Source of the DNA: an uncultured Anaerolineaceae bacterium
Lineage (GTDB): Bacteria > Chloroflexota > Limnocylindria > Limnocylindrales > CSP1-4
Reading direction: 5' to 3'
Length of the DNA: 59,742 bases
Assembly (NCBI GenBank): GCA_964475245.1
Contig: CAYYVV010000013.1
Span: forward strand, 1-59,742
In this document: piece by piece, positions 2,964 to 45,707 of the stretch
Layout: every line of letters begins with the position of its first letter
Numbering within the stretch: position 1 is the first letter of the stretch
Notes under the pieces: generated by a model
The model's database searches: none
Told to the model about the DNA's origin: nothing
The model's input: the letters and a program-made list of their open reading frames with translations, nothing else
Translations under genes and position numbers: made by a program

Positions 2964-3080
2964 CGACGTCGATGGTAATCGCCGAATCGAAGTGAATCGC
3001 GTCTTCGCGTTTGCTAACTTGCCATCGGGGAGTTTGCTGCTGGCGGGTTCGCCGCTGGCGAGCCTAAGAGGAGGAGAGGG

Positions 3081-3584
3081 ATGACTGGGCTGCCGTTGCT
3101 GTTTCTGCTGCTCCACATCGGTGGAGCGGTGATCGCCTTTGGGCCGTCGTTCGCGTTCCCGATCATCGGCAGCATGGGCGGTGCCGAGCCGATGCATGCC
3201 AACTTCTCGCTGCGCCTGAGTGAGCGAATCGAGAGTCGGATCGTTCTGCCGCTCGCGATCGTCCAGGCGATCACAGGCATCGGCCTGATCTGGACAATGC
3301 CCGTCGACCTGACCAAGGCGCTCTGGCTAGATCTCGCGATCATCCTGTACGTCATTGCGCTGGGTATCGCCACGGGCAATCAGCTGCCCGTCACGAAGCG
3401 ACTGATCGAGGCGACCAAGAACCCGCCGCCTCCGCCGCCTGCGGGCACGCCCGTGCCTGCCGGGCCACCGCCGCAGATCGCGGCCATGATCAGGCGAGTT
3501 CAGCTGGGCGGCGTCGCTCTGACCGTGCTCATCCTCGTGATCATCGCCCTGATGGTGCTTGGCACGAACGGCTTCTTCGCCTAG
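3081..3584 (+). CDS. DUF2269-like integral membrane protein
   Basis: Four hydrophobic segments, an N-terminal HIxxAVIAFGP motif and a strong SD (GAGGAGG). Confidence 0.7.
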   Translation: MTGLPLLFLLLHIGGAVIAFGPSFAFPIIGSMGGAEPMHANFSLRLSERIESRIVLPLAIVQAITGIGLIWTMPVDLTKALWLDLAIILYVIALGIATGNQLPVTKRLIEATKNPPPPPPAGTPVPAGPPPQIAAMIRRVQLGGVALTVLILVIIALMVLGTNGFFA

Positions 3585-5179: not shown

Positions 5180-5209
5180 GCCGGCAAGGCTAGCGATCCC
5201 GACCCCGGT

Positions 5210-6553
5210 TCAGGCCGGCAGCAGGCGGCCTCTGACCCACGCGCCGCGGACCATCTGCGGCCGCGTCCGGAAGATCAGCCGGCTAGCCGTCTCGTCGGCA
5301 TCGCTCACCGTGCTCGACGGTATCGGTGCCGTCGCATGGGGGTCGATGCAGATGAAGTCGGCTTCCTTGCCCGGCTCGAGCGAGCCGACGCGGTCCTCGA
5401 TGCCCAGCGCCCGCGCGCCATCCAGCGTCCCCAGGCGCAGCCAGTCGAGCGGCCTGAGCCGTGTGCTCGAGTCGCCCAGCATGGTCGACCGCCCGCTCAT
5501 CGTGTACGCGCCGGCGCGCATCTCGCCAAAGATGCTCACGTCCGGGCCGCCCGCCACGTCGCTGCCCAGCCCGATCGTCATGCCCGCCGCGAGGTAGCGC
5601 CCGAGCGGCATAGCCCCGCTCGACAGGAACAGGTTCGACGACGGGCAATGGGCGATGCGCGTGCGCGTCTCGGCCAGCCGCGCCAGCTCACGGTCGGACA
5701 GGTGGACGGCGTGCGCCACGATCGTGCGCGGGCCGAGCGCGCCTGCGCGGTCATAGACATCGGTGTAGTCGAGCGCCTCCGGGAAGAGGCGAGTGACCTC
5801 GTCGATCTCGAGGCGGTCCTCGGCGAGGTGCGTCTGCCAATACGCGCCGGTGGCGCGGGCCAGGCTGGCCGACTCGCGCAACATGTCGGCCGTGCAGCTG
5901 ACCGCGAAGCGTGGCGTGACGGCGTACTGCAGCCGACCGTCGTCGCGGCCGTGCCAGCGTTCGATCAGGCGCTGCGTCTGGGCGAGGCTCTCGTCGAGCA
6001 CCTCGCTGTCGGGCAGCGAGCTGTCGTAGCGCAGCCGGTCCATCATCACTTTGCCCAGGACGAGACGGATGCCGTGCTCTTCTGCCGCGCCGAACGCGGC
6101 GTCGACGCTGTCCTCGTAGACGGCGCCGTAGAGCACCGCCGTTGTCGTGCCCGCAGCGGCCAGCGCGCGATAGAAGAGTGGCGCCAGGCGCCGGGCAGCA
6201 TCGGCGTGGAACTCACGCTCGAGCGGAAAGACGTACCGATCGAGCCACGTCAGCAGGTCGAGGCCCGCGCCCAGGCCTGCATTGGGCCACTGCGGCAGGT
6301 GGGCGTGCAGGTCGACGAGCCCGGGCATGACCAACAGCGGCCGCATGTCGATCGCATCCGCGCGCCCTGTCGCCGGCCAATTCTCGGCGCGCGCGATGCG
6401 GCCGGCGTTGTCAACCTCGAGCAACGCGTCGCTGATGAGGCGTGTCGACCCGTCGGGGAGTGGCGTGAGCAGTCGCGCCCGCAGCGCAAACGGGCCGTGC
6501 TTCAGCCCATCGGGCAGCTCGCTCGGCGACTCGTGGTCCTGTGCTTGTGCCAC
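5210..6553 (-). CDS. guaD: Guanine deaminase
   Basis: PGLVDLHAHLPQ, YAVTPRFAVSC, QTHLAE, AHCPSSNLFLSSG and GLGSDVAGG. GTG start at 6553 was chosen because TAACAT lies 7 nt upstream. Confidence 0.88.
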   Translation of the reverse strand: MAQAQDHESPSELPDGLKHGPFALRARLLTPLPDGSTRLISDALLEVDNAGRIARAENWPATGRADAIDMRPLLVMPGLVDLHAHLPQWPNAGLGAGLDLLTWLDRYVFPLEREFHADAARRLAPLFYRALAAAGTTTAVLYGAVYEDSVDAAFGAAEEHGIRLVLGKVMMDRLRYDSSLPDSEVLDESLAQTQRLIERWHGRDDGRLQYAVTPRFAVSCTADMLRESASLARATGAYWQTHLAEDRLEIDEVTRLFPEALDYTDVYDRAGALGPRTIVAHAVHLSDRELARLAETRTRIAHCPSSNLFLSSGAMPLGRYLAAGMTIGLGSDVAGGPDVSIFGEMRAGAYTMSGRSTMLGDSSTRLRPLDWLRLGTLDGARALGIEDRVGSLEPGKEADFICIDPHATAPIPSSTVSDADETASRLIFRTRPQMVRGAWVRGRLLPA

Positions 6554-6592
6554 TGAGCGGATGTTATTGGTCGCTATCCTGCGCGACAGGCC

Positions 6593-6871
6593 ATGCCGCA
6601 GGTTCAAGTCACCCAGGATCCACTCGTCGTCACGCTGATCGTGGGCCTGATCTGTGGCGCCGCCATCCTCGCCCTGCTCTTCGCAGGTCCATGGTCCGCC
6701 CGCGTGCCGCGTGCGCCGCGCGTGCCGAGCGTGGACGAGCACGAGCACTCCGAGCCGCCACCGACGATGGGGCCAGCGAGTCCGACCAGCATTCCTCCAG
6801 CGTCGCCGACTGAGATGCCACCTGAGCCAGCCTGGGCGAGCACCCGGCACACGCCGCCGGGGCACGACTGA
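6593..6871 (+). CDS. Small single-pass membrane protein with Pro-rich tail
   Basis: One TM segment (VVTLIVGLICGAAILALLFAG) followed by a Pro/Ser/Thr-rich tail. It fills the gap between two minus-strand genes. Confidence 0.5.
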   Translation: MPQVQVTQDPLVVTLIVGLICGAAILALLFAGPWSARVPRAPRVPSVDEHEHSEPPPTMGPASPTSIPPASPTEMPPEPAWASTRHTPPGHD

Positions 6872-16680: not shown

Positions 16681-16768
16681 CGATGGGCTGTGGGTCCGGC
16701 GACACCCCCGTCCCGGTTGACTATGCTTGGCCTACTTTCTCGATCATATTCGTCGCCCAGGGGTCCCA

Positions 16769-17926
16769 ATGAAGATAGGTGTGGTCAAAGAGCGCGCGCC
16801 CAACGAACGACGCGTCGCCCTCGTGCCCGACGCGCTCAAATCGCTGATCGCCGCCGGTGCCGAGATCCTCGTCGAGCAGGGCGCGGGCGATAGCGCCGCG
16901 ATCCCCGATCGGCTGTACAGCGATGCCGGCGCGCGCATCGTGGCGCGCGACGAGCTGTACAAGGACGCGGACGTCATCGCCCGTGTCCAGAAGCCCGACG
17001 GCCCGGACGTCAAGTCGCTGCGCGAGGGACAGGTCGTCGTCGGCCTGCTCCAGCCGCTCATCGATCCGCAGCTGATGGCGACCCTGGCCAAGAACAAGGT
17101 CACCGCGATCAGCCTCGACGCCATTCCGCGCACGCTGTCGCGTGCCCAGTCGATGGACGTGCTCTCGTCGCAAGCGAACGTCGGCGGCTATCGGGCGGTG
17201 CTCATGGGCGCCCTCGAGTACGGCCGATACTTCCCGCTGCTGACGACCGCCGCCGGCACTGCCAAGCCGGCCAACGTGCTCATCCTGGGCATCGGCGTCG
17301 CCGGTCTGCAGTCAATCGCCACGGCGCGCCGGCTGGGTGCGATCGTCAAGGCGTATGACGTCCGCTCCGAGACCAAGGAGCAGGCCGAGTCGCTCGGCGC
17401 GCAGTTCATCGTCCTCAAGTCGGTCGCTGACGCGACCGGCGCCGGTGGCTATGCCCGGGCACTGACGCCCGAGGAGCAGGCCGCGCAGCAAGAGGAGCTG
17501 AACGGCTACATCGCCAACATGGACGTGGTCATCACCACGGCCCAGGTGCCCGGCCGTCGGCCGCCGCTGCTCGTCACGGCCAAGGCCGTCGCGGGCATGA
17601 AGCCAGGCTCGGTCATCGTCGACATGGCAGCCTCCGCGCTCGGCGGCAACGTCGAGCTCTCCAGGCCCGACGAGACGGTCGTGACCGACAACGAGGTGAC
17701 GATCGTCGCGCCGACGAACCTGCCGGCGACCATGCCGGCCGGTGCCAGCCAGTTCTACGCTCGCAACATGTCGACCTTCCTCGTCCACTTCATGAAGGAC
17801 GGGGCCATGAATTTCGACCTGACCGACGAGATCCAATCGGCGACGGTCATCACCCGCGACGGCGAAGTCGTGCAGGAGGCAACCAAGAAGCTCCTCCAGC
17901 CGGCCGCCCCGGAGGCAACAAAGTGA
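16769..17926 (+). CDS. pntA: NAD(P) transhydrogenase subunit alpha part 1 (dI)
   Basis: MKIGVVKE....ERRVALVP, RAQSMDVLSSQ, GIGVAGL and DVVITTAQVPGR. Confidence 0.95.
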   Translation: MKIGVVKERAPNERRVALVPDALKSLIAAGAEILVEQGAGDSAAIPDRLYSDAGARIVARDELYKDADVIARVQKPDGPDVKSLREGQVVVGLLQPLIDPQLMATLAKNKVTAISLDAIPRTLSRAQSMDVLSSQANVGGYRAVLMGALEYGRYFPLLTTAAGTAKPANVLILGIGVAGLQSIATARRLGAIVKAYDVRSETKEQAESLGAQFIVLKSVADATGAGGYARALTPEEQAAQQEELNGYIANMDVVITTAQVPGRRPPLLVTAKAVAGMKPGSVIVDMAASALGGNVELSRPDETVVTDNEVTIVAPTNLPATMPAGASQFYARNMSTFLVHFMKDGAMNFDLTDEIQSATVITRDGEVVQEATKKLLQPAAPEATK

Positions 17927-18300
17927 ACCCAGACCTGCTCAATGCGCTGGCGATCTTCCTGCTCGCGATCCTCGTCGGGTTCGAGGTCATCAGCAAGGTC
18001 CCGGCGACTCTGCACACGCCGCTGATGTCGGGCGCGAACTCGATCCATGGCATCGTCATGGTCGGCGCGATGCTCATCGCCGCGGCCGCTGACAACCCGT
18101 TCAGCTACGTGCTCGCGTTCATCGCCATGGTCTTTGGCGCGGCCAATGTCGTGGGCGGTTACGTCGTCACCGACCGAATGCTCCAGATGTTCCGACGGCG
18201 CGAGCCGGCGAAGGCAGCACCTGCTGTCGAGGCGGCAAGCGTTCCGGCCGGCACTCCCGGCACGGGCACCGGTGCGGCCGGCGCCGCGGAGGGCAAGTAG
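17923..18300 (+). CDS. pntA: NAD(P) transhydrogenase subunit alpha part 2 (membrane)
   Basis: ISKVPATLHTPLMSGANSIHG and NVVGGYVVTDRMLQMF. GTG start overlaps the upstream stop. Confidence 0.93.
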   Translation: MNPDLLNALAIFLLAILVGFEVISKVPATLHTPLMSGANSIHGIVMVGAMLIAAAADNPFSYVLAFIAMVFGAANVVGGYVVTDRMLQMFRRREPAKAAPAVEAASVPAGTPGTGTGAAGAAEGK

Positions 18301-18302
18301 TC

Positions 18303-19772
18303 ATGTCGGACGCCTGGATCTACACACTCGTCTTCTTCAGCTGGCTGGCCGGCGCGGCCGCGTTCGTGCTCGGCCTGCACCAGATGAACAGCCCGGCCAC
18401 GGCGCGCCGCGGCAACCAGCTCAGCGCGGCCGGCATGGCCCTGGCCGTGATCGTCACCTTCCTGTGGCTGCTGACGCCCGGTAACGCGATCCATGCCGGG
18501 GGCATGAGCCTGACCGCCATCGCGATCATCGTCGTCGGCTTCGTGCTGGGCGGCGGTATCGGGCTGTACATGGCGCGCAAGGTCGCCATGACCGCCATGC
18601 CGCAGCTCGTCTCGCTGTTCAACGCAGTCGGCGGAGGGGCGGCCGCCCTGGTCGCAATCGACGACTTCGTGCGCATCGCGGGCCAGCCTGAGCTGACCGT
18701 TTCCACCTCGATCTTCGTGGTCCTGGGCGCCGCAATCGGCAGCGTGACCTTCTCGGGTTCGCTGATCGCTTCGGGCAAGCTCCAGGGCCTCATCCCGGGC
18801 CAGCCGATCATCTTCCCGGGCTCACGCCTGGTCACCGCGCTCACCGCGCTGATCGTCGCCGTCGGGCTCGTGGTGCTCGTTCTTGCCTCGGCGGGCGCGG
18901 TCGTCCTCACCTCGGACGTTCAGCTTCTGGTCCTGGGCCTCGTCGTCCTGTCGGCGCTGACATTCGGCATCACGCTCGTGCTGCCCATCGGCGGCGCGGA
19001 CATGCCCGTCGTCATCTCGCTCTTGAACTCGTTCACCGGCACGGCCGCGGCCATGGCCGGCTTCGTCATCGGCAACCCTGTGCTGATCATCGCCGGCGCG
19101 CTCGTCGGCGCCTCGGGCGCGATCCTGACCAAGCTCATGGCCGACGCCATGAACCGCTCGATCGCGAACATCATGGTCGGTGGCTTCGGGACCGGTGATG
19201 CAGCGGCAGGCTCCGCAACCGGCGCGGGCGCGTCAGGCGGCACCATCCGCGAGGTCAGCCTCGACGATGCCGCAATCCAGCTCGCCTACGCCCAGAAGGT
19301 GATCATCGTCCCCGGCTACGGCCTGGCCGTGGCCCAGGCGCAGCACGCCTGCCGCGAGCTCGGTGACCTGCTCGAGGCGCGTGGGGTCGAGGTCTCGTAC
19401 GCCATCCATCCGGTGGCCGGCCGGATGCCGGGCCACATGAACGTGCTGCTGGCCGAGGCCAACGTGCCCTACCCGCAGCTCAAGGAGATGGAGGAGATCA
19501 ACCCCGAGTTCGATCGGACCGACGTTGCCCTCGTGGTGGGTGCGAACGACGTCACCAACCCGGCGGCGCGATCGAACCCGCAGAGCCCGATCTACGGCAT
19601 GCCCATCCTCGATGTCGACCATGCGCGGTCGATCATCGTCATGAAGCGCTCGATGCGGCCCGGTTATGCGGGCATCGACAACGAGCTGTACGCCAACCCC
19701 AAGACGGGCATGCTCTTCGCCGACGCGAAGGACGGCCTGACCCAGCTGGTCGCCGCGGTCAAGGAGCTCTAG
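18303..19772 (+). CDS. pntB: NAD(P) transhydrogenase subunit beta
   Basis: MTAMPQLVSLFNAVGGGAA, IGGADMPVVISLLNS, VPGYGLAVAQAQ, HPVAGRMPGHMNVLLAEA and GANDVTNP. Confidence 0.96.
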   Translation: MSDAWIYTLVFFSWLAGAAAFVLGLHQMNSPATARRGNQLSAAGMALAVIVTFLWLLTPGNAIHAGGMSLTAIAIIVVGFVLGGGIGLYMARKVAMTAMPQLVSLFNAVGGGAAALVAIDDFVRIAGQPELTVSTSIFVVLGAAIGSVTFSGSLIASGKLQGLIPGQPIIFPGSRLVTALTALIVAVGLVVLVLASAGAVVLTSDVQLLVLGLVVLSALTFGITLVLPIGGADMPVVISLLNSFTGTAAAMAGFVIGNPVLIIAGALVGASGAILTKLMADAMNRSIANIMVGGFGTGDAAAGSATGAGASGGTIREVSLDDAAIQLAYAQKVIIVPGYGLAVAQAQHACRELGDLLEARGVEVSYAIHPVAGRMPGHMNVLLAEANVPYPQLKEMEEINPEFDRTDVALVVGANDVTNPAARSNPQSPIYGMPILDVDHARSIIVMKRSMRPGYAGIDNELYANPKTGMLFADAKDGLTQLVAAVKEL

Positions 19773-23814: not shown

Positions 23815-24765
23815 ATGAGCCGGCGAATGACGTGGGTCGTGACCACCCCGGCCGCGGCGCGCATCCCGCGCTCCCAGAACCGGCCGTTCGTGAGCATGCT
23901 CACCGATTGGGGCGCGCGGGATCCGTCGGCCGCGATCTGCCACGGCGTCGTGCTCTCGATCGTGCCTGAAGCGCTGATCGTCGACATCAGCCACGAGATC
24001 GAGAAATACAACATCCGCCACGGGGCGCTGATGCTGTGGTGCGCCCTGCCGTTCCTGCCCATCGGTGCGCACATGGCCGTCGTTGACCCGGGCGTGGGCA
24101 CGACCCGCCGGCCGATCGCGATCGAGGTCGCCCGGGGTGACATCCTCGTCGGGCCTGACAACGGACTGCTCCTGCCGGGCGCCGACCGGCTGGGCGGGAT
24201 CATGCGCGTCCACGTGATCGACAACATCCAGTACCGCCTGCCGGTGCTGACCTCGACTTTCCACGGGCGTGACCTTTTCGCTCCGGCCGCCGCACATCTC
24301 GCGCTGGGCGTACCGCTCGAGGCGCTTGGGCCCGAGCTGGACGCCAACGACCTGGTCACGATCGACTGGCCGCCCGTCGTCGTGCGCGAGAACGAGCTGG
24401 AGACGACTGTCATCTACCGCGACACATTCGGCAACCTCAAGCTCGCCGGGCTGACCGCGGACCTGCTCGCCGCTCTGCCGGGGATCGAGCACGGCGGCCG
24501 GGTCGAAGTGAACATCAGCGGCCGCAAGCGGCCGCTGATCATGCCCTGGGCGCCCACGTTCGGCGGAGTCGAGGCGGGCGGCTACCTGATCTTCGAGGAT
24601 TCGTACGGCAGGCTGTGCATTGCCCAGAACCAGGGCAATGCTTCAAAGTCGCTGAAGGTCAGGGAAGGTGCTGTGGTCACTGTCCGGCGTGCGCCCGAGC
24701 ATCTGACCGCGGGCACCGATGAAGACGAAGAGCCGGCCCAGATCGAGGCTCAGGCGGCCGAGTAG
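23815..24765 (+). CDS. SAM hydrolase / SAM hydroxide adenosyltransferase (DUF62 family)
   Basis: LTDWG, VVDPGVGTTRR (Asp, Arg), GPDNG, TFHGRD (His) and DTFGN give the Asp-Arg-His triad of the hydrolase branch. Confidence 0.88.
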   Translation: MSRRMTWVVTTPAAARIPRSQNRPFVSMLTDWGARDPSAAICHGVVLSIVPEALIVDISHEIEKYNIRHGALMLWCALPFLPIGAHMAVVDPGVGTTRRPIAIEVARGDILVGPDNGLLLPGADRLGGIMRVHVIDNIQYRLPVLTSTFHGRDLFAPAAAHLALGVPLEALGPELDANDLVTIDWPPVVVRENELETTVIYRDTFGNLKLAGLTADLLAALPGIEHGGRVEVNISGRKRPLIMPWAPTFGGVEAGGYLIFEDSYGRLCIAQNQGNASKSLKVREGAVVTVRRAPEHLTAGTDEDEEPAQIEAQAAE

Positions 24766-27149
24766 GCCTCGACCAGCTCGATCGGCGTCGGCTCGATCGG
24801 CGTCGGCTCGATCGGCGTCGGCTCGGTCGGCCGGAACTCGGTCGCCAGGGCAAGACCTTCAGCGGCCGTCGCGATCCTGTCGCGTCCGGCACGTTTCGCC
24901 GCGTAGCACGCGCGGTCGGCGGCGAGGATCACGCTGGCGGCGTCGTGGCCGTCCTTCGGATAGACCGCGATACCGACCGAGCAGGACACCTGGACGCGCG
25001 AATCGCCATCCTGGTTGAGTCCCGCGACTGCGGCGTGGATCTTGTCGGCAACGGTGCGCCCGCCGGCCAGACCGGTTGTCGGCAGCAGGACCGCGAACTC
25101 GTCACCGCCGAAGCGGAAGACGAGGTCGGACTCGCGACACGAGTCGTGCAACACGCCGGCGACGCGCTTGAGCATGTCATTGCCGGCCTGGTGGCCCAGG
25201 TGGTCGTTGTAATGCTTGAAGAAGTCCAGGTCGACCATGAGCATCGAGAAGCGCGTGCCCTGCGCGACCAGGCGGTCGATCTGCTGAGTGAGCGCGCCGT
25301 GGTTCCACAGCCCGGTCAGGTGGTCGGTCTCGGCGCGCAGCTCCACCGCACGATGCGCGGCGGCATTGCGCAGGGCGATCGAGACATGCGCCGCGAAGAG
25401 CTTGATGAGGTCGAACTCTTCGCTTGTGAACGCCGCGTTGGCGCCGAGCCGCTCGATCATCAGCGCACCCTGCGCGCCCTCGCCGCTGCGCAGCGGCGCA
25501 ACGATCATGGCGCCGGCGTGCAGGCCAAGCTCGCTGAAGGTCAGGACGCGCGGATCCTTCAGCTCATCCGAGACGAGCTGCGCCTCGCCGGTCCGCAGTG
25601 CATCGCCGCTGACGCCCGCGTCGTCCGGGGTGTCGATGGACATGAACTGGGTTGCGTCGACGCCGCGGGCAAAGATGGTGTGCAGCCGTCGCGTCGCAGG
25701 GTCATGGATGCTGACGACGATGTTGTCGACGTGGATCAGCGCCTGGAGCCGTTCGGCGATCTCCTCGAGCAGTGTCTGGGCATCGAGCGTGGTCAGGATC
25801 GACTCGGTCACCTTGAGCAGCTCACGCTGGCTGTTGAGCTGTCGGGTGAGGGCTTCCGACTGCGCGCGGAGCCGTTCGGTTGCATCGGCGTTGGCGACCG
25901 CCTGGGCGGCGATCGAGGCGTAGATCTCGAGGACGCGCAGGTCGTCGGGGCCAAACTGGTTCAGGCCCAGCTTGGCAAGGACGATGACGCCGATCACCTC
26001 GTCGTCGAAAAGCATCGGCGCGAGCAGGAGCGACTCGTCGGTGCCCTCGGTCGTGCCCGGAATGGTCTGCGTGCGCCGGTCGGCGTCAGCGTCGCCCAGC
26101 ATCTGGGCGATCCCATGACGGGCAACCCAGCCGGTGATTCCCTGGCCGACCTTGAGCCGAAGCTGCTCGCCGTTCTCGGTCTCGTACTCGCCGACCTCGC
26201 CGCGCCAGGCCACGGGCACGCAGTCCTCGCCCTCGACGCGATAGACGCGGATGTTGTGCGAGGCGATGAGCTGGTTGAGCTCGGTGCAGATCGTCTGCCC
26301 GATCTCGTTCACGGTGCGCAGGCGCGTCAGGCGCGTGCCGAGCTGCTGGATGGAGTGCAGCTGCGCCGCCCACGTTGCCATCCGGGTGTAGTTCTCGGCG
26401 TTGCGCACGATCGTCGCGCCCTGCTGGGCGATGCGCTCGAGGAGACTGAGGTCCTCGGGCGTCCATTCGTGGCGCTTGTCGTGATACAGCGTCAAGGCGC
26501 CCATCGGCTCGTCGTCGAAGCTGAGCGGCGCGACGGTGACCGTGTTGATGCCCTCGCGCAGGAATGCGCGGCGCAGCTCGAAGGCGCGCGGATCGTCCGC
26601 AACATCCTGTATCGATACGACGCGCCGCTGCTGAAAAGCGAGCGCCGCAACCGGCCGCGTCGTCGAATGCTCGATCGCCTGGCAGTAGTCGTCGGACAGG
26701 TTCACCCTGGCCTGGGCGCGGAACGTGCCGAGCGGGGTGCGCGTGAAGATCGCCGCCCGATCCGCACCGAACAGCTCAGCCGTTCGCTCGACGAGCCGGT
26801 GGAGCACTACGTTCGGGTCCAGCTGGTGGCCCAGCTCGGTGCTGATCGCGAGCAGAAGATCGGCATGACGCAGACGCCGCTCGGCCAGGGCATCAGTTGC
26901 GGCCCGTTGAGCAGGCCGGATCGCGGCGCGTGCGGCGCGCTGGCTCGGCTTCGCCTCGGCCGACTTCATGAAGCTCACGAGATCGCTGCGCCGGAAGCGT
27001 CGGTCGCCGCGGCGATTGATGCGCAGACAGCGCAGGACGCCCTGCTCGGTCCAGACACGCACCGTGTTGGGGTGCACGCCAAGCGTCCGGGCAGCCTCAC
27101 TGACTGTCAGGAAGTCTGTAGGACGGACAGCGTTCGTGGTCGTCTCCAG
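24750..27149 (-). CDS. HTH_17 (MerR/BldC-like) + three GAF domains + GGDEF diguanylate cyclase
   Basis: FLTVSEAARTLGVHPNTVRVWTEQG HTH, three GAF-type repeats, AETDHLTGLWN, DLDFFKHYNDHLGHQAGN, RESD (I-site) and GGDEF. Start extended from GTG 27077 to an in-frame CTG at 27149; the start is uncertain. Confidence 0.85.
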   Translation of the reverse strand: METTTNAVRPTDFLTVSEAARTLGVHPNTVRVWTEQGVLRCLRINRRGDRRFRRSDLVSFMKSAEAKPSQRAARAAIRPAQRAATDALAERRLRHADLLLAISTELGHQLDPNVVLHRLVERTAELFGADRAAIFTRTPLGTFRAQARVNLSDDYCQAIEHSTTRPVAALAFQQRRVVSIQDVADDPRAFELRRAFLREGINTVTVAPLSFDDEPMGALTLYHDKRHEWTPEDLSLLERIAQQGATIVRNAENYTRMATWAAQLHSIQQLGTRLTRLRTVNEIGQTICTELNQLIASHNIRVYRVEGEDCVPVAWRGEVGEYETENGEQLRLKVGQGITGWVARHGIAQMLGDADADRRTQTIPGTTEGTDESLLLAPMLFDDEVIGVIVLAKLGLNQFGPDDLRVLEIYASIAAQAVANADATERLRAQSEALTRQLNSQRELLKVTESILTTLDAQTLLEEIAERLQALIHVDNIVVSIHDPATRRLHTIFARGVDATQFMSIDTPDDAGVSGDALRTGEAQLVSDELKDPRVLTFSELGLHAGAMIVAPLRSGEGAQGALMIERLGANAAFTSEEFDLIKLFAAHVSIALRNAAAHRAVELRAETDHLTGLWNHGALTQQIDRLVAQGTRFSMLMVDLDFFKHYNDHLGHQAGNDMLKRVAGVLHDSCRESDLVFRFGGDEFAVLLPTTGLAGGRTVADKIHAAVAGLNQDGDSRVQVSCSVGIAVYPKDGHDAASVILAADRACYAAKRAGRDRIATAAEGLALATEFRPTEPTPIEPTPIEPTPIELVEAYSAA
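24778..24822. repeat. 15-bp tandem repeat x3 encoding EPTPI at the DGC C-terminus
   Basis: TCGATCGGCGTCGGC in three perfect copies. Confidence 0.9.
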
Positions 27150-38926: not shown

Positions 38927-40783
38927 TTGGCCATCGATCCCAACCAGGAATTCCTGGTTCAGCCTGTCGACGCTTCCTGGCTTCAGTGCAATATCGAGTG
39001 CCAGGAAGCGTGCCCCGTGGGCACGAACTGTCGCGGGTACCTGAACCTCGCCGCTGAGGGCCGCTTCGAGGAGGGCTACATCCTCGCGCGCGAGCCGAAT
39101 CCGGTCGCGGCGATGTGCGCCTACGTCTGCTCCGCCCCATGCGAGCGCGCGTGCCGGCGCGGCGACATCGATCGGCCGCTGTCGATCAGGGCCATGAAGC
39201 GCTTCCTGACCGAGTGGCACCAGGCGAGCGGCATCCCTGACGACATGCCCCAGATAACGCCGCGCGACACGAAGGTGGCCGTTGTCGGCGCTGGCCCGGC
39301 CGGCATCTCCGTCGCCCGCGAGCTGGCCACGGCCGGCCACCAGGTCACGGTCTTCGACGAGCTGCCCTACGGCGGCGGCACGATGCTCATCGGCGTGCCC
39401 GCCTTTCGCCTGCCGCGCGAGGCGATCGAGATGGACCTCAAGCTCGTGGAGCGGCTCGGCGTCCGCTTCCGGTACGGCGTGCGCATCGGGCGTGAGATCA
39501 CATTCGAGGAGCTCCAGCAGCAGTACGACGCGATCGGCATCTGCGCCGGAGCGATGAACGCCGTCCCGCTTGACGTTCCCGGCGGCGATCTCGAAGGCAT
39601 CCAGTACGGCGTCGACTACATGAAGAAGGCCAACCTGGGCGAGCCGATGGACGTCGGCGACAACGTCGTCATCATCGGCGGCGGCTACACCGCGATGGAC
39701 TGCGCGCGAACTTCGCTGCGCTACGGCTCGAGCAACGTCACGATTGCGTACCGCCGCACGCGCTCGGAGCTCGTGGTCGACGAGGAGGAGCTCGGCGAGA
39801 CCGAGCGCGAGGGCGTCCGGATGGAGTTCCTGGTCAGCCCGGTCGAGGTGCTGGGCGACGAGAAGGGCCACGTCCGCGCCGTCAAGTTCGTCCGCAACCG
39901 CCTCGGCGAGCCGGACGCGACCGGCCGCCGCGCGCCCGTGCCCATAGAGGGCAGCGAGTTCGAGATCCGCGCCGACACGGTCATCCCCGCCGTCAGCCAG
40001 GCCGCGGACAACACCTTCTTGCCCGTCGAGTCGAGCTTCGAGATCAACCGCGGCCGCGTCCGCGTCGATCCCGGCACGTACGCGACCAACGTCCGTGGCG
40101 TGTTCGCCTGCGGCGACTTCGTGACCGGGCCGACGACGCTGATCGAGGCCGCCGGCCACGGCAAGAAGTGCGCCTATGCCATCGACCGCTACCTGTCCGG
40201 CCGGCGCGAGGTCGACGTCGACGCCAATGTGCGCATCATCAGCTCGTGGCGCCACGAGATGCCCGAGTACTACGACGTCCTGCCGCGCGTCCACGTCCCG
40301 ATGGCGCCTGTCGCGGCGCGCTTCACGGCAGCCGCCGACCCGACCGTCAACTTCAGCACGCCCGTTGAGCTCGGCTACAGCGCCTCGCAGGCGGTGACCG
40401 AGGGCACGCGCTGCCTGATGTGCAACTACAACATCTGGTTCGACGGCTTCCGCTGCGTGCTGTGCGGCGCGTGCGCCGATGTCTGCCCTGAAGGCGTCAT
40501 CCACATGATCGACATCAACCAGATGAAGTCGGAGGGCCCGCTGCCCGAGCTCGTCGACGCCTACGGCTGGTCCGACGGAGCGGCGATGGTGCTCGACGAG
40601 GAGCGCTGCATCCGTTGCGCATTGTGTGTCAAGCGATGCCCGTATGACGCCATTACCATGGAGCGGTTCGAGCTCCAGGAGATCAGCTCCGACGGGCGCC
40701 TCTACAAGGAGAGCTACCGGGATACCCAGCTGGGGCTCGCTGGCATCGGTAACCGCGCCGAGGCGGGAGGATACGTTCGTTGA
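38927..40783 (+). CDS. GltD/NfnB/DsrL-like FAD-dependent NAD(P)H oxidoreductase with N-terminal Fer4_20 and C-terminal 2[4Fe-4S] ferredoxin domain
   Basis: CNIECQEACP...CAYVCSAPCERACRR, GAGPAG, FRLP, GGGYTA.D + AYRR, RCLMC, CVLCGACADVCP and CIRCALCVKRCP. Start is TTG 38927 or 38918. Confidence 0.9.
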   Translation: MAIDPNQEFLVQPVDASWLQCNIECQEACPVGTNCRGYLNLAAEGRFEEGYILAREPNPVAAMCAYVCSAPCERACRRGDIDRPLSIRAMKRFLTEWHQASGIPDDMPQITPRDTKVAVVGAGPAGISVARELATAGHQVTVFDELPYGGGTMLIGVPAFRLPREAIEMDLKLVERLGVRFRYGVRIGREITFEELQQQYDAIGICAGAMNAVPLDVPGGDLEGIQYGVDYMKKANLGEPMDVGDNVVIIGGGYTAMDCARTSLRYGSSNVTIAYRRTRSELVVDEEELGETEREGVRMEFLVSPVEVLGDEKGHVRAVKFVRNRLGEPDATGRRAPVPIEGSEFEIRADTVIPAVSQAADNTFLPVESSFEINRGRVRVDPGTYATNVRGVFACGDFVTGPTTLIEAAGHGKKCAYAIDRYLSGRREVDVDANVRIISSWRHEMPEYYDVLPRVHVPMAPVAARFTAAADPTVNFSTPVELGYSASQAVTEGTRCLMCNYNIWFDGFRCVLCGACADVCPEGVIHMIDINQMKSEGPLPELVDAYGWSDGAAMVLDEERCIRCALCVKRCPYDAITMERFELQEISSDGRLYKESYRDTQLGLAGIGNRAEAGGYVR

Positions 40784-41508
40784 GCTTTCTCGAGCGTGTA
40801 GACGTGGCTGTCAGGCGCAGCGCGGCCTTCCGTTCGCTGTTCCGCCAGCCCTACCCCACCGACGAGCGATCGCGTGCCTACGCGGTCATGAACAACGTCT
40901 TCCTGCACCTCCACCCGGTGCGCGTCCGGCAGCACGCGGTCAGGTTCGCGTACACGTTCTGCCTCGGCGGACTGTCGTTCTTCTTCTTCCTAGTGCTCGT
41001 CGTGACCGGCGTGTTCCTGATGTTCTTCTATATCCCGTCGTCGACGTCGGCGTATACGGACATCCTGAACATCCAGGCCCAGGTGCCATTCGGGCTGCTG
41101 ACCCGCAACATCCACCGCTGGGCCGCGCACTTAATGGTCTTCTTCGTCTTCCTGCACATGATGAGGGTCTTCTACCACGGCGCCTACAAGCCGCCGCGCG
41201 AGTTCAACTGGGTCATCGGCGTACTGCTGCTGTTCTTCACCGTGGCGCTCTCGTTCACCGGCTACCTGCTGCCCTGGGATCAGATCGCGTTCTGGGCCGT
41301 GACCATCGGCAACAGCATCGCGGGCTACGTGCCGCTTCTGTCGCGGCCGTCGCAGTTGCTCATCTTCGGCGGCATCGAGGTCAGCCAGAACACGCTCCTA
41401 CGCTTCTACGTGCTGCACGTGATCCTGTTGCCGCTGACCGCGGCTATCTTCCTCGCCGTGCACTTCTGGCGCATCCGGAAGGACGGCGGCATCTCAGGGC
41501 CGCTCTAG
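40780..41508 (+). CDS. Cytochrome b6-type N-terminal subunit (PetB/QcrB-like)
   Basis: YTFCLGG (heme-ci Cys), HRWAAHLMVFFVFLH, GYLLPWDQ.A.WA and LHVILLP...VH. Four TM segments. TTG overlaps the upstream TGA. Confidence 0.93.
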   Translation: MSFLERVDVAVRRSAAFRSLFRQPYPTDERSRAYAVMNNVFLHLHPVRVRQHAVRFAYTFCLGGLSFFFFLVLVVTGVFLMFFYIPSSTSAYTDILNIQAQVPFGLLTRNIHRWAAHLMVFFVFLHMMRVFYHGAYKPPREFNWVIGVLLLFFTVALSFTGYLLPWDQIAFWAVTIGNSIAGYVPLLSRPSQLLIFGGIEVSQNTLLRFYVLHVILLPLTAAIFLAVHFWRIRKDGGISGPL

Positions 41509-41541: not shown

Positions 41542-42186
41542 ATGACCGAAGACAAGTCGCGACTACCCGCTCCGACTGCACCCGCCGAGCCGAGCGCCCC
41601 ACGGCGCAGCACGCTACCCGCCGCGCCGCCCGAGCGACGCACGACGGAGATCGACAAGCAGCGCGTGCCCATGGCCGCGAAACCGTACCGGCTCCTGGCG
41701 CTGGTCAAGCAGGACGCTGTCGTTCGCGTTCAAAAGGAACCCGACGACACGGTCATGACCTGGCCGCACCTGCTGGCGATCGAGTTCTTCGCGGCGGCGA
41801 TGATGAGCGTCCTCCTGCTGCTGATGGGCGTCTTCGTCAACGCGCCGCTCGAGGATCTGGCCAACCCGAACACGACTCCGGTCGTGGCCAAGGCGCCGTG
41901 GTACCTGGTCGGCATCCAGGAGCTGCTCGCCTATTTCCACCCGGTCGTCGCCGGTGTGATGTCGATCGCCTACATCATCGTCGGCGCGCTGGTCATCCCG
42001 TACATCGACCGCGGCCCGCGCGGCGACGGCGGCTCGTCGCGACCCAGCGACCGCAAGCTCGGCATCATGCTGTTCACGATGTTCGCCGCCAGCGGCCTCG
42101 TCATCACGTTCCTGGGCGCCTTCTTCCGCGGCCCGGGCTACAACTACATCGTGCCGTGGACCGACGGCCTGTTCTTCGCTCTCTAG
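41542..42186 (+). CDS. Cytochrome b6 subunit IV-like protein (PetD/QcrC-N/ExtQ-like)
   Basis: WPHLL, LANPNTTP..AKAPWY (PEWY position), IPYID and three TM segments. Confidence 0.88.
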   Translation: MTEDKSRLPAPTAPAEPSAPRRSTLPAAPPERRTTEIDKQRVPMAAKPYRLLALVKQDAVVRVQKEPDDTVMTWPHLLAIEFFAAAMMSVLLLLMGVFVNAPLEDLANPNTTPVVAKAPWYLVGIQELLAYFHPVVAGVMSIAYIIVGALVIPYIDRGPRGDGGSSRPSDRKLGIMLFTMFAASGLVITFLGAFFRGPGYNYIVPWTDGLFFAL

Positions 42187-42207: not shown

Positions 42208-42876
42208 ATGGGTAACTGGAAGCTGGCCCGTTGGCAGGAACCGCAGACGCTGACGCGCGACGTGTTGCGCGAGATGCGCCGCGGCCGGCCGGCGGGCATG
42301 TCACGGCGCACGCTCATCCGGCGCTCGATCGGCGCCGGCGTGGCGCTGTGGCTGCTCGAGGTAACCGGCGGGCTGCTCGGCTTCCTGTGGCCCAACCTGT
42401 CGAAGGGCTTCGGTGGGCAGCTGACGCTCGGCGATCAGCCGACCGTCTCGGCCAGCCCGGCCGTGCAGGGCGTGTCCCTGTCGGACGGGGCGCCGGCATA
42501 TTTCGCACCGGCTCGAACCTATGTCCAGTTGCTCGACTACACGCGCGGCTTCAACGACGGCACCAGCAGCGACGGCACGGGCGACACGACCAACGTGCGC
42601 ACGCTCTACCAGCGTTGCCCGCACCTGGGCTGCAAGCCCAACTTCTGCACGACCAACTACTGGTTCGAGTGCCCGTGCCACGGCTCGCGCTATGACCGGG
42701 TCGGGACCAAGATCAAGGAGCTCGGTCCCGCGCCGCGCAGCCTCGACCGCTTCGCGCACACGATCAAGGGCGGCGTGCTGACCGTCGACACCTCCAAGAT
42801 CAACCTCGGCCCGCTGCCCGTCGCGCTTGGCCAGCCCGGGCTCATCCCGGCACGCTCTCCGCAGGGCTGCATATGA
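42208..42876 (+). CDS. Rieske [2Fe-2S] subunit (Tat-exported)
   Basis: SRRTLI twin-arginine signal with TM helix, CPHLGC and CPCHGSRY. Confidence 0.93.
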   Translation: MGNWKLARWQEPQTLTRDVLREMRRGRPAGMSRRTLIRRSIGAGVALWLLEVTGGLLGFLWPNLSKGFGGQLTLGDQPTVSASPAVQGVSLSDGAPAYFAPARTYVQLLDYTRGFNDGTSSDGTGDTTNVRTLYQRCPHLGCKPNFCTTNYWFECPCHGSRYDRVGTKIKELGPAPRSLDRFAHTIKGGVLTVDTSKINLGPLPVALGQPGLIPARSPQGCI

Positions 42877-44216
42877 GCGACAACCGGAGCGGCCGCGACC
42901 TCGTGCCGCGGCCCGAGGAGCCCGGCTCTGCCGTCACGCCGCGCGAAGCCGGCCTGCCCGCGAACGCCCCGGCCGATGAGCGCTTCTCCGCCGGCCAACA
43001 GGCGCACACCGTCGGGCTGAGCGAGGAGCGCGTCGCCAAGATCGTCAAGCAGAGCGGCAACGCGCGCATGTACGCGTTCCTTGCTGCGCTGTTCCTGGTC
43101 CTGTTCATCCCCATCTACTGGCTGTACGACATCGGCTTGCCCGTGATCGGCGACAGCGGCCGCCTCGCGAACGAGGCCAACCAGCAGCAGGTGACGGACA
43201 TCTCGCAGGGCTATGCCCTCTTCCTCGCCAACTGCGCGCGCTGCCATGGCAACAACGGCGAGGGTGGCGTCGGCCCGCCGCTCAATGACCAGGCCAAGCT
43301 GTACAACGCGCTCACGCCTCAGGGCGATCCCGGCAACGGCCACCTCAACCCGAACTACATCCAGAATGTGCTGACCGTCGGCGGCCGCTACGTGTGCGGC
43401 GACCCCAACAGCGTCATGCCCATCTGGGCGCAGCCCAACGGTCCGTTGAACTACCTCCAGATCCAGCAGATCATCGACTGGATCACGGCCAGCAGCAGCA
43501 CGTCCTTCGTCTACCAGCCGGCCGTGCCGGAAGGGCAGGCCGGAGCGACCGCGCCGCCGGCAGTGACCATCCACGGCTGGACCGATCCCAACTACAGCCC
43601 TGCGCCGGACGCGACCGCCGTGCCGGCATGCTGGCGCGGCACCTCGGTCACTGGCAGTGGCGGCTCGGCCGCGCCGTCGCTCGCGCCGGTGACCAGTCCG
43701 GGCACGGCCCAGAACCCGCGCATCGTCCAGGTCGAGGGCACGCCCAGCGCGCAGTGGGTCGACGCGACAACCGGCCAGCCGATCAGCCAGCTCGCGGTCG
43801 TGCCCGGTGAGACGATCGAGTTCCAGGTCAAGACCGACACTCTGGCCCACAACTTCCACATCGGCTCGGCGGCCGACCTGTCAGCTGCGCCCGAGCACAA
43901 CGACCTGCCCGGACTCGACACCTTCTCCGGCAACACGCAGAACTTCATCTACACCGTGCCGGGCGACCCGTCCGGTCTCCAGTTCGCGTGCACGGTGCCC
44001 GGCCACTACCAATCGATGCACGTCGACCTCGTGGCCCTGGGCGGCGGATCTGCGTCTCCGGGGGCATCGGGCGCGGCACCGTCCGCCGCGCCGCAGTCGG
44101 GCGCGCCGCAGTCTGCGGAACCGTCGGGATCGACCGCGCCGGCCGTGTCGGCAGCTCCTTCTCCGGCGCCGTCGGCAGCTCCATCGGCGGCTCCCAGCAC
44201 GGCACCCGCCTCGTAG
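42873..44216 (+). CDS. Membrane-anchored monoheme cytochrome c fused to a type-1 copper cupredoxin domain
   Basis: N-terminal TM segment, CARCH (43233-47), distal MP, then HNF (His 43848) and CTVPGHYQSM (43989-44018), ending in an Ala/Pro/Ser tail. Confidence 0.88.
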   Translation: MSDNRSGRDLVPRPEEPGSAVTPREAGLPANAPADERFSAGQQAHTVGLSEERVAKIVKQSGNARMYAFLAALFLVLFIPIYWLYDIGLPVIGDSGRLANEANQQQVTDISQGYALFLANCARCHGNNGEGGVGPPLNDQAKLYNALTPQGDPGNGHLNPNYIQNVLTVGGRYVCGDPNSVMPIWAQPNGPLNYLQIQQIIDWITASSSTSFVYQPAVPEGQAGATAPPAVTIHGWTDPNYSPAPDATAVPACWRGTSVTGSGGSAAPSLAPVTSPGTAQNPRIVQVEGTPSAQWVDATTGQPISQLAVVPGETIEFQVKTDTLAHNFHIGSAADLSAAPEHNDLPGLDTFSGNTQNFIYTVPGDPSGLQFACTVPGHYQSMHVDLVALGGGSASPGASGAAPSAAPQSGAPQSAEPSGSTAPAVSAAPSPAPSAAPSAAPSTAPAS

Positions 44217-45707
44217 ATGGCTGCCCAAGCCCTCCCGCCCGGAGCAGTTCGCCGCCGCGCGGTGTTCGGACTTCTCGACGCCGACGGCTGGACGTGGGCC
44301 TCGATCAAGGCCACCTTCTGGTTCGTGTTCATCATCTTCGTCCTGGGCTACATCCCGGACCGAGCCATCTATTTCACGATCTCGCCGACGATCGACCTGG
44401 GCTTCAACGTGATCTCGCCCATCAACCTCTGTCCGACCGATAACAAGTCGCTGCCCTGCCCGGCTCCCGCCGGCGCAGTAATCCCGTGGGAGCAGAGCCC
44501 GGCGGAGCTGGCACTGCCGCAGGGCCGCACCGCTTCTGGCACTTTCTCGTCGGGCAGCAACATCTACCTGGTCGGCGGCGCGAGTGGCGGAACGGCCACG
44601 AACAGCGTCCTGGTCACCACCGTCGCCAGCGGCAACTTCAGCCCGTGGCAGGACGGGCCGGCACTGCCCGACGCGCGCAGCGGCGCGGTCGTGCTCAACC
44701 TTGCCGGCACGCCGTACGTCATCGGTGGCTCTGACGCGTCCGGAAATCCGACCGCGACCGTCTACAGGGGCACCATCACCAGCGGCGCCCTGACCGGCTG
44801 GACAGACGCCGGCATCAACCTGCCCATGCCGCTGACCGACGCGTCCGGTGTTTCGACCGCGAACGGCCTGTACGTGTTCGGTGGCGAGATGAGCGGCAAC
44901 GCACTATCCGCGGCCACGTACCTGACGACGCTGACCACGACCGGCACGCCCAAGCTCCAGGCCTGGCAGGAGATGACCGAGGTGCCACTGCCTGAGGCAC
45001 GCGCCGGTGCGTCGGCCGTTTCGGCCGGCGGCTCGGTCTACGTGATGGGCGGCCGCGGGCCGAGCGGCGTCACGAACTCTGTCTTCTACCTGCCGCTCGA
45101 CACGCACGGCAACCCGGCCGTCAACCTCGCCATCGGCCGGCCGTTCGGCTGGGGCGTGTCGGTCAACCAGTCGGCCTCGGCGGCACTGCCGGTCGCGGTC
45201 CAGCACGCCACGACGTTCACCAACTCGGGTGCCATCTACATGATCGGCGGCACGGACGCAAACAACGCCACGCTCGCATCGAACTACTGGGCAGTGCCCA
45301 ACGCGACGAACGGCACGATCTCCGCCTGGCAGCACCTCGACGACACGGACCTGCCTGGGCCGCGCGCCGAATCGGCGGCCGCGGTTGTCGGTGGCGAGGC
45401 GTTCCTGATCGGCGGCAGTGGCGCGCAGGGCGAGGACCTCGCCTCGACCAGCCGCGCCAATCTCGCGCCCGGCCTGCCGTTCTTCCGACTGGGCCTGTTC
45501 GGCGTGACCGTCCCGGCGCTGTCGATCAAGGGTGACATCGGCCTGCAGCTGGGTTACATCGCGGCCGGCACTGCCGGCGCCGGCGGCCTCATCTTCCTGA
45601 TCCTCATCGGCTGGGCCTTCTCGCACCGCCCGCAGACGTTCCGCTTCTTCCAGCGGATCACCCGCGGCCGTTTCCGGGCACCTCCAGAGGACGATTACAC
45701 CTACTAG
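44217..45707 (+). CDS. Six-blade kelch beta-propeller protein with N- and C-terminal TM anchors
   Basis: Six hydrophobic-GG repeats (IYLVGG, PYVIGG, LYVFGG, VYVMGG, IYMIGG, AFLIGG) with spaced Trp. Starts immediately after the upstream stop. Confidence 0.82.
   Translation: MAAQALPPGAVRRRAVFGLLDADGWTWASIKATFWFVFIIFVLGYIPDRAIYFTISPTIDLGFNVISPINLCPTDNKSLPCPAPAGAVIPWEQSPAELALPQGRTASGTFSSGSNIYLVGGASGGTATNSVLVTTVASGNFSPWQDGPALPDARSGAVVLNLAGTPYVIGGSDASGNPTATVYRGTITSGALTGWTDAGINLPMPLTDASGVSTANGLYVFGGEMSGNALSAATYLTTLTTTGTPKLQAWQEMTEVPLPEARAGASAVSAGGSVYVMGGRGPSGVTNSVFYLPLDTHGNPAVNLAIGRPFGWGVSVNQSASAALPVAVQHATTFTNSGAIYMIGGTDANNATLASNYWAVPNATNGTISAWQHLDDTDLPGPRAESAAAVVGGEAFLIGGSGAQGEDLASTSRANLAPGLPFFRLGLFGVTVPALSIKGDIGLQLGYIAAGTAGAGGLIFLILIGWAFSHRPQTFRFFQRITRGRFRAPPEDDYTY

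Follow-up and report, generated by a model that had tools for sequence, protein, structure and literature searches.

An NADP(H)-binding iron-sulfur flavoprotein as a putative cytoplasmic subunit of a Rieske/cytochrome b6 complex in Limnocylindrales

The window analysed here, a stretch of 59,742 nt from an uncultured bacterium of the Limnocylindrales (contig CAYYVV010000013.1), contains an operon in which the genes of a Rieske/cytochrome b6 complex are preceded by the gene of an iron-sulfur flavoprotein. Judged by its residues, the flavoprotein is a StnC/NfnB-like module for reduced or oxidised nicotinamide adenine dinucleotide phosphate, NADP(H), with a C-terminal 2x[4Fe-4S] ferredoxin. Its gene context and conserved motifs indicate with good confidence that it is a subunit of the b6 complex. 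Its proposed role, that of an NADP(H) module on the negative side (n-side) of a b6-type Rieske/cytochrome b complex that feeds electrons from NADPH into it, is put forward tentatively, at somewhat below even confidence. The pairing of an NAD(P) flavoprotein with a b6 complex is known from anammox bacteria, and its occurrence in aerobic Chloroflexota is new; a literature search found no paper on this operon in Limnocylindria.

The flavoprotein gene is an intact reading frame on the plus strand that encodes 618 amino acids (aa) from TTG 38927 to TGA 40783. Residues are numbered from this TTG, and the addition of 26 converts them to the numbering from ATG 38849. The protein and its parts are as follows.

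38927-40783, plus strand: iron-sulfur flavoprotein with an NADP(H) site; putative subunit of the Rieske/cytochrome b6 complex on its cytoplasmic side (Pfam, PDB and fold matches)
38987-39205, plus strand: N-terminal two-cluster domain with Cys21/25/29/35, Cys64/68/72/76 and Lys91 (alignments to 4ylf_B and 8oh5_C; conservation)
39287-39415, plus strand: dinucleotide fold for flavin adenine dinucleotide (FAD), with GAGPAG at 39287-39304 and the FRLP arginine at 39404-39415 (motif positions; conservation)
39677-39757, plus strand: NAD(P) fold, with GGGYTA at 39677-39694 and the YRR 2'-phosphate patch at 39749-39757 (NfnB alignment)
40205-40453, plus strand: linker of about 84 aa (residues 427-509) ending in R495-C496-x-x-C499 (RCLMC at 40409-40423)
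40454-40642, plus strand: C-terminal 2x[4Fe-4S] ferredoxin with two CxxCxxCxxxCP motifs (Pfam Fer4/Fer4_7/Fer4_9)
40709-40780, plus strand: C-terminal tail (residues 595-618), which the monomer model shows as disordered, with a predicted local distance difference test (pLDDT) score below 50

Every motif listed in the original prediction, which was made from the DNA alone, is present at its place in this single reading frame, and the domain matches are far beyond chance. The N-terminal cysteines (C21/C25/C29/C35 at nt 38987-39031; C64/C68/C72/C76 at nt 39116-39154) lie within a Pfam Fer4_20 match (E 3.1e-17). The dinucleotide folds are matched by Pyr_redox_2 (E 1.8e-31), and the ferredoxin motifs CVLCGACADVCP (nt 40454-40489) and CIRCALCVKRCP (nt 40607-40642) by Fer4/Fer4_7 (E about 1e-10 to 1e-11). 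In the family alignment (A1), G121, G123, G126, R161, L162, P163, R495, C496, C499 and all eight cysteines of the ferredoxin domain are invariant, and the cluster cysteines as a whole are conserved. The AlphaFold2 monomer model has a pLDDT of 81.5 and a predicted template modelling score of 0.81. The N-terminal domain of most relatives has only six cysteines. The linker helix with its RCLMC resembles the N-terminal helix and RCLQC of NfnB, in which Cys39 and Cys42 are ligands of the distal cluster; residues 479-500 align with NfnB 22-43 and Pf NfnI-L 25-46 in a HMMER local alignment that is weak when taken alone. The NfnB segment appears to have been moved into the linker, where RCxxC may fold back and complete the distal cluster with the two ligands that the N-terminal domain lacks, before the chain enters the ferredoxin domain. 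The C-terminal tail, to which related tails are found in other Chloroflexota copies by alignment of the C-termini, is a candidate docking peptide.

Among proteins of known structure, the best sequence matches are the large subunits of NfnABC (9bov_A, 1e-108; 9N5U, 2e-108) and StnABC (8oh5_C, StnC, 1e-90). NfnB/NfnL follow (4ylf_B, 7e-84; 5JCA, 1e-83), and true GltD chains lie lower at about 1e-63, with 220 bits against 286-368 bits for NfnB-like chains. Foldseek ranks the top matches of the model as the sequence search does (NfnABC/StnC/NfnB), with alignments to the transhydrogenase subunits of more than 630 columns that reach beyond the FAD domain. The likeness to StnC and the NfnABC large subunit (8OH5, 9BOV, 9N5U) runs through the RCxxC segment and takes in YRR, the Lys ligand and the equivalent of Cys114. 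Unlike StnC/NfnABC (Bfu), the window protein has neither a NuoG/FdhF-like C-terminal domain nor HydB/HydC-like partners; its last domain is a plain 2x[4Fe-4S] ferredoxin, and its genomic partner is a membrane cytochrome. It shares with NfnB/NfnL (4YLF, 5JCA) the core fold (TM-score 0.8; root-mean-square deviation 2.3 Å), YRR, the (F/Y)RLP arginine and the two N-terminal clusters. It differs from NfnB (about 470 aa) by a Lys in place of Glu117, by the lack of an NfnA-type gene in the window and by about 190 extra aa that form the linker and the ferredoxin.

The four-module architecture had been labelled DsrL-like. As a description of the architecture the label stands, since the published DsrL plan (N-terminal 2x[4Fe-4S], FAD with an embedded NAD(P) domain, a linker of about 100 aa and a C-terminal 2x[4Fe-4S] ferredoxin; PMC7596348) contains the same modules in identical order with a long linker, and YRR is found in NADP-specific DsrL-2; this comparison is with the published description. 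As a family label it fails, because the best matches are NfnABC/StnC and NfnB and the conserved genomic partner is a Rieske/cytochrome b6 complex. The position of NfnB Cys39 is Trp18 in the window protein and Ser/Thr in all DsrL, a weak difference at the alignment edge. Grouping with bona fide GltD, which had been named as an outcome that would speak against the proposal, is not supported by the scores: the protein lies below every NCBIfam GltD cut-off (TIGR01316, 350 against 472 bits; TIGR01318, 276 against 483; TIGR01317, 212 against 448). No gltB, nfnA or dsrAB (NIR_SIR/DsrAB-type) gene was found in the 10 kb to either side, nor is there one among the remaining large reading frames of the window, which agrees with the earlier statement that no such partner is adjacent. 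Membership in one of the soluble families DsrL, GltD or NfnB would account for the common fold and cofactor motifs, the DsrL-like domain order and the public annotations 'glutamate synthase beta subunit-like'. It is nevertheless largely refuted and highly improbable: no dsrAB, gltB or nfnA was found in the window, the conserved genomic partner is b6, the scores miss the GltD cut-offs, Lys91 replaces Glu at the proximal cluster, and NfnB lacks the C-terminal ferredoxin.

The nicotinamide site has a sound NADP-type signature. YRR aligns exactly with Y310-R311-R312 of Thermotoga maritima NfnB, which hold the 2'-phosphate of NADPH, and the identical motif divides NADP-specific DsrL-2 from NAD-specific DsrL-1 (PMC7596348). 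Of the two marks on which the predicted NADP(H) preference had been based, YRR is a real discriminator among the b6-linked genes described below, whereas 79 of 81 family members have GxGxxA, those with C/S-L-E of the NAD type among them. The alignment shows (F/Y)RLP in 75 of its 81 sequences, 80 of which have a residue at the site. Both motifs are near-universal in the family and therefore uninformative, and they were dropped as signs of NADPH preference or bifurcation. The FRLP arginine, equivalent to NfnB R187 (Pf R201), had been noted as a contact of flavin N5 in bifurcating NfnB. As a mark of bifurcation it cannot be upheld: in StnC the same conserved arginine, about 6 Å from N5, accompanies a non-bifurcating flavin (PMC10482914).

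The surroundings of the flavin point the same way. Lys91 aligns with NfnB Glu117, a ligand of the flavin-proximal cluster, and with StnC Lys170; it is a Lys in every extended relative. Cys35 corresponds to StnC Cys114, which alternates with Lys170 at the proximal cluster, and the StnC flavin is a non-bifurcating port for NADPH into the cluster chain (PMC10482914). The flavin site hence looks StnC-like, and flavin-based bifurcation is unlikely in the window protein because Lys replaces the NfnB Glu, as in StnC.

The flavoprotein gene is tied to the b6 complex by its position. The longest reading frame, from ATG 38849 (644 aa), is the public gene call. Relatives are 616-617 aa long with their N-terminus at the residue that matches TTG 38927, and GAGG stands 10 nt upstream of this codon; the TTG start adopted in the original prediction is therefore the likelier one. 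The stop codon TGA 40781-40783 overlaps the TTG 40780 start of the cytochrome b6 gene (TTGA), and the two genes are translationally coupled. The gene upstream lies on the opposite strand, so that the flavoprotein gene is the first of the operon, as had been proposed. Promoter and terminator scans of the operon gave no signal above chance. Near-identical public metagenome contigs contain the identical six-gene set with unrelated genes on both flanks. After the flavoprotein gene, the cluster continues in the following order.

40780-41508, plus strand: cytochrome b6, 242 aa (Pfam Cytochrome_B, 3e-47; four haem-b histidines)
41542-42186, plus strand: subunit IV-like protein, 214 aa, with a long N-terminal extension on the n-side (Pfam Cytochrom_B_C)
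42208-42876, plus strand: Rieske [2Fe-2S] protein, 222 aa (Pfam Rieske; CPHLGC...CPCHGSRY)
42873-44216, plus strand: membrane-anchored cytochrome c with a single haem motif (CARCH, aa 121) and a fused auracyanin-like cupredoxin domain (Pfam Cytochrome_CBB3/Cytochrom_C)
44217-45707, plus strand: Kelch beta-propeller membrane protein, last in the cluster (Pfam Kelch families)

Cytochrome b6 matches a PDB chain from residue 59 on (4e-50) and passes the NCBIfam ExtP model with 292 bits at a cut-off of 290. It contains Cys61, the haem ci ligand, in CLGG (nt 40960-40971), and it retains, as Arg233, the Qn-site arginine that is Arg207 in b6f. Its motif NNVFLH43LHP (residues 38-46, nt 40891-40917) includes the invariant His43. 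The Qo motif of subunit IV is APWY (AKAPWYF, nt 41893-41904) in place of PEWY or PDWY.

Linkage of this kind recurs across bacteria. Aligned four-module relatives served as the query in a GTDB scan with one genome per species, which yielded 80 loci. In 28 of them the flavoprotein gene directly adjoins those of cytochrome b6 and subunit IV, with a Rieske gene detected in 21 of the 28 and the APWY motif in all. These linked loci belong to at least six phyla (Chloroflexota, Acidobacteriota, Planctomycetota, Abyssobacteria, Verrucomicrobiota and Chlamydiota): Limnocylindria, another Chloroflexota lineage, nine Acidobacteriota, Ca. Scalindua, two other Planctomycetota, Ca. Abyssobacteria, Verrucomicrobiae and Waddliaceae. 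Their gene order differs among lineages. The remaining loci are mostly large fusions or are devoid of the C-terminal ferredoxin domain. Most b6-linked genes fall together in a neighbour-joining tree, with two anammox-type sequences elsewhere; the tree is too crude to establish a single origin. Metagenomes provide three further loci with the flavoprotein beside b6. They come from a sample of 80 b6 genes of the APWY-type clade, 28 of which have at least 2 kb of sequence on both sides. His43 and the N-terminal WxSxFR segment (b6 residues 14-35) are present in 80 of 80, and the flavoprotein gene is adjacent in only 3; both features were accordingly rejected as markers of flavoprotein docking. From the same count, the flavoprotein is either an optional addition within the clade or encoded elsewhere in those genomes.

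The known counterpart of the window gene is the anammox NAD(P) oxidoreductase Kuste4570/Kustd1483, an assignment that rests on the synteny of a Scalindua orthologue and on matching b6 residues. The window protein is 36% identical over residues 14-580 to the product of a Ca. Scalindua gene (tblastn E 5e-110) that lies between Rieske and b6. The order of this locus (Rieske, flavoprotein, b6, subunit IV) is that of kuste4569-4572, and both residues reported for Kuste4571, His43 and Arg247, recur in its b6. Like Kuste4570 and Kustd1483, the window protein has FAD and NAD(P) sites, cysteines for four iron-sulfur clusters and a Lys near a three-Cys proximal cluster; in the anammox proteins the flavin-proximal cluster is without a fourth Cys and a buried Lys is close by (PMC12954380). 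Both systems also combine, in one operon, the Rieske protein, a split b6 with CxGG and His43, and subunit IV. The differences are that the window host is an aerobic member of the Chloroflexota, that the flavoprotein gene stands first, that a Kelch protein is added and that the flavoprotein has additional cysteines at positions 21 and 35. The acceptor in the window is a monohaem cytochrome c-cupredoxin, as opposed to the hexa- or octahaem cytochromes or HAO-like protein of anammox bacteria; a multihaem cytochrome on the positive side (p-side) is a mark of the anammox examples and probably not a defining trait of the family.

In the published AlphaFold3 model of the anammox complex, the NAD(P) subunit lies on the n-side, and its four clusters form a path to haem cN and to a putative additional haem b, of which His43 was proposed to be a ligand at the dimer interface. 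Work by de Almeida (2016), cited in PMC5600118, is reported to show the Kuenenia counterpart migrating together with the cytochrome b complex. Together with the retained haem ci cysteine, the synteny in at least six phyla and the overlap of stop and start codons, these model and complexome data make b6, on its n-side and close to haem ci, a plausible docking site for the ferredoxin domain.

The b6-linked operons fall into two designs, with YRR in 16 flavoprotein genes and C/S-L-E in 14. Type 1 comprises the window, loci L001-L010 and L039, Scalindua L017, L068 and L100. It combines YRR with the CxGG haem ci cysteine of b6, and its Rieske protein, where found, has CxCHGSxY in all but L004, which has Phe. 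Type 2 is found in Acidobacteriota, Abyssobacteria, Verrucomicrobiae, Waddliaceae, one Planctomycetales genome and locus L152. Here C/S-L-E replaces YRR, the haem ci cysteine is lost, the Rieske motif is mostly GSxF, b6 and subunit IV are often fused, and multihaem cytochromes c with 5-9 CxxCH are encoded downstream. The co-variation of nucleotide motif and haem ci cysteine is complete (16/16 and 14/14), although few independent lineages are represented. No description of this split between an NADP type with haem ci and an NAD type without it was found in the literature consulted, and it constitutes a concrete, checkable prediction. A rather speculative extension, which we regard as improbable though worth stating, is that, if the co-variation is functional, haem ci acts as a gate between the NADP(H) wire and the b haems, and that the main complex III of Limnocylindria is a respiration-coupled NADPH machine. 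Were this so, the complex would be a natural, hard-wired analogue of the disputed pathway between ferredoxin-NADP+ reductase (FNR) and cytochrome b6f, in which NADPH is either made by Qo-site bifurcation or burnt through a Mitchell-type Q cycle.

In the reading preferred here, with the reserve stated at the outset, electrons of NADPH (-320 mV) would run downhill from FAD through the proximal (Lys) cluster, the distal cluster and the two ferredoxin clusters, with the n-side haems and the Qi quinone as their destination. The flavin would serve as an ordinary converter of two-electron to one-electron transfer, StnC-like and not bifurcating. The ferredoxin domain would lie against the b6/subunit IV dimer at its n-side face, exchanging single electrons with haem ci/bH, and an extra haem b held by His43 may take part in the route. 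The whole complex would then be an NADPH:cytochrome c/cupredoxin oxidoreductase, which corresponds to the n-side donor scheme of Mitchell's original Q cycle (PMC7908018). The cytochrome c-cupredoxin is probably the high-potential acceptor, and a monohaem c with an auracyanin-like domain fits an aerobic chain. The cupredoxin-like part (about 43650-44060) has the ligand pattern HNFH...CTVPGHYQSM, followed by an Ala/Pro/Ser-rich tail. Its best PDB match, Chloroflexus auracyanin A (2aan_A), is weak (E 0.07), with an identical CTVPGHY loop. In other genera of the Limnocylindrales, tblastn matched only the N-terminal 270 or so residues of the cytochrome c subunit and did not detect the C-terminal domain.

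The same subunit and wire could work in the opposite direction. In anammox complexes, bifurcation at the Qo site has been proposed for NAD(P)H production (Kartal 2013, Hauser 2025). Applied to the window, quinol oxidised there would send its low-potential electron through the b haems and clusters to FAD to form NADPH, with the other electron going to Rieske, cytochrome c/cupredoxin and O2. We consider this unlikely, yet it is the strongest of the alternatives, and we lean toward NADPH oxidation over it. Homology and synteny with the anammox-type Ca. Scalindua operon, the system behind the proposal, speak for it, as does the unusual Qo motif. The Rieske protein (CPCHGSRY) carries both hydrogen-bond donors, Ser and Tyr, like Kuste4569; anammox Rieske potentials lie above +300 mV with menaquinone-7, and Hauser et al. 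read these residues and the +303 mV of Kuste4569 with menaquinone as support for NADP+ reduction. This weighs against NADPH oxidation, as do three further points: an NADP-specific site such as YRR is more typical of NADPH-producing enzymes; a route from NADPH to Qi saves no more energy than a type II dehydrogenase; and NADPH oxidation beside the transhydrogenase PntAB of the window could be wasteful. In the reverse direction, however, the electron would have to overcome the membrane potential before climbing to -320 mV, and by our rough estimate the energy balance is marginal with menaquinone, an acceptor at about +250 mV and a membrane potential of normal size. The retained haem ci cysteine and Qi-site Arg233 would short-circuit the electron into quinone, and both favour NADPH oxidation, for which an optional donor module needs no retuned haem potentials. 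APWY, His43 and the Rieske Ser are clade-wide, mostly without an adjacent flavoprotein gene, and hence are no adaptations to it. The hosts are nearly all organoheterotrophs and half of the linked genes are NAD-type, for which a use of quinol-driven NADH formation is not obvious; PntAB already supplies NADPH. The genes pntAA, pntAB and pntB (16727-17926, 17923-18300 and 18303-19772, plus strand; AlaDh_PNT_N/C, PNTB 595 bits) lie about 20 kb from the b6 operon and encode a complete proton-translocating NAD(P) transhydrogenase, a route from NADH to NADPH driven by the proton-motive force.

Two other schemes were weighed. A soluble NADPH:acceptor oxidoreductase, co-transcribed with the b6 complex but unbound and serving a ferredoxin-like or other partner, would explain why the flavoprotein has no transmembrane segment and why most b6 genes of the clade are without an adjacent flavoprotein gene. 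It is also supported by P0122 (49% identity) and P0124, the closest relatives outside Limnocylindria: both have the four modules and are stand-alone genes, a fact that counts against a role bound to the complex. In at least six phyla the flavoprotein gene adjoins the b6 genes, although their order varies, the codons of the flavoprotein and b6 genes overlap, and, as cited in PMC5600118, the Kuenenia counterpart co-migrates with its cytochrome b complex, all of which render an unbound enzyme improbable. Slightly less probable still is a confurcating mode, in which NADPH and reduced cytochrome c/cupredoxin jointly reduce the Qo-site quinone at the expense of the proton-motive force. APWY is found in all linked operons, and Kao and Hunte (2014) tie the APWY clade to reversed operation. 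No APWY complex has been characterised so far, though; no gene for a high-potential lithotrophic donor is seen in the window, and the auracyanin-like cupredoxin fusion resembles an aerobic acceptor chain.

The kind of system was already known on paper. Cytochrome b 'subfamily G' (Dibrova 2013/2017) is the 'APWY clade' of Kao and Hunte (2014), which includes Geobacter ExtO/ExtP/ExtQ, and the co-occurrence of these cytochromes b with large NAD(P)-binding iron-sulfur proteins was noted in print by Dibrova et al. The window complex shares with this clade a short b6 with the C-terminus RKDGG, WxSxFR...NxxLH43, and APWY in subunit IV; a flavoprotein gene next to the complex, as in the window, is missing from the Geobacter ext cluster and from most of the members sampled. 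The ext cluster was rejected as a flavoprotein-bearing analogue, ExtM and ExtN being multihaem cytochromes. Compared with the canonical cytochrome b6f, APWY replaces PEWY and the monohaem c-cupredoxin stands in place of cytochrome f, while the haem ci cysteine is present. A functional parallel is FNR on chloroplast or cyanobacterial b6f, for which cyclic electron flow by way of haem cn has been proposed; there too a flavoenzyme for NADP(H) faces the n-side of a complex with haem ci/cn, in a Mitchell-type Q cycle with a donor on that side (PMC7908018). FNR, however, has a plant-type fold instead of the GltD/NfnB fold, is loosely bound and has a debated role, whereas the window module is encoded in the operon with its own ferredoxin.

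Rieske/cytochrome b complexes with a cytoplasmic NAD(P) oxidoreductase have been described since 2011-2013, and none has been biochemically characterised. Limnocylindria are an abundant class of aerobic freshwater and soil Chloroflexota, and the presence of such a complex in their core respiratory operon means that the arrangement is no anammox curiosity. With its simple high-potential side (one haem c and a cupredoxin) and its clearly NADP-specific flavoprotein, the window system is the cleaner test case. It poses the questions of whether a b6-type complex can pass a low-potential electron to NADP+ and whether reductant on the n-side can enter through haem ci, a case that has been made for FNR/ferredoxin in the cyclic electron flow of photosynthesis.

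The Kelch gene is conserved downstream of the complex in L002, L003, L005 and L006 (43-47% identity in three loci and 39% in L005). Subunit IV residues 49-65 (41686-41736) form a conserved n-side segment, (Y/F)(R/G)L(L/M)A(L/V)V(K/R)...V(D/Q)(K/R), which is seen in L001-L016, L018-L025, L039 and L045 and is absent from canonical PetD and two anammox-type loci. The string YRLLALVK, common to subunit IV and the stand-alone proteins P0141, P0124 and P0126, was considered as a Rosetta-stone link and rejected: the profile matches are not significant (E 0.05 and 0.2), P0124 stands alone, and the neighbour of P0141 is an unrelated coiled-coil protein. In the metagenome locus L090, whose b6 is 85% identical to that of Scalindua, a flavoprotein-like match 1 kb upstream of b6 covers only residues 25-500. 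L100, a short contig on which no subunit IV was detected, has its flavoprotein gene downstream of b6. P0160 (820 aa) is a relative of the flavoprotein whose residues 1-215 form a fused multi-span membrane domain; its several conserved-looking histidines suggest a possible b-type cytochrome. The fusion was weighed as a sign of wiring to a cytochrome b, but the domain has no Pfam match. Unrelated genes of the window, all on the minus strand, encode a large subunit of the molybdopterin xanthine-dehydrogenase/CO-dehydrogenase type, two amidohydrolases and a triple-GAF GGDEF diguanylate cyclase (507-3197, 3581-6865 and 24750-27077).

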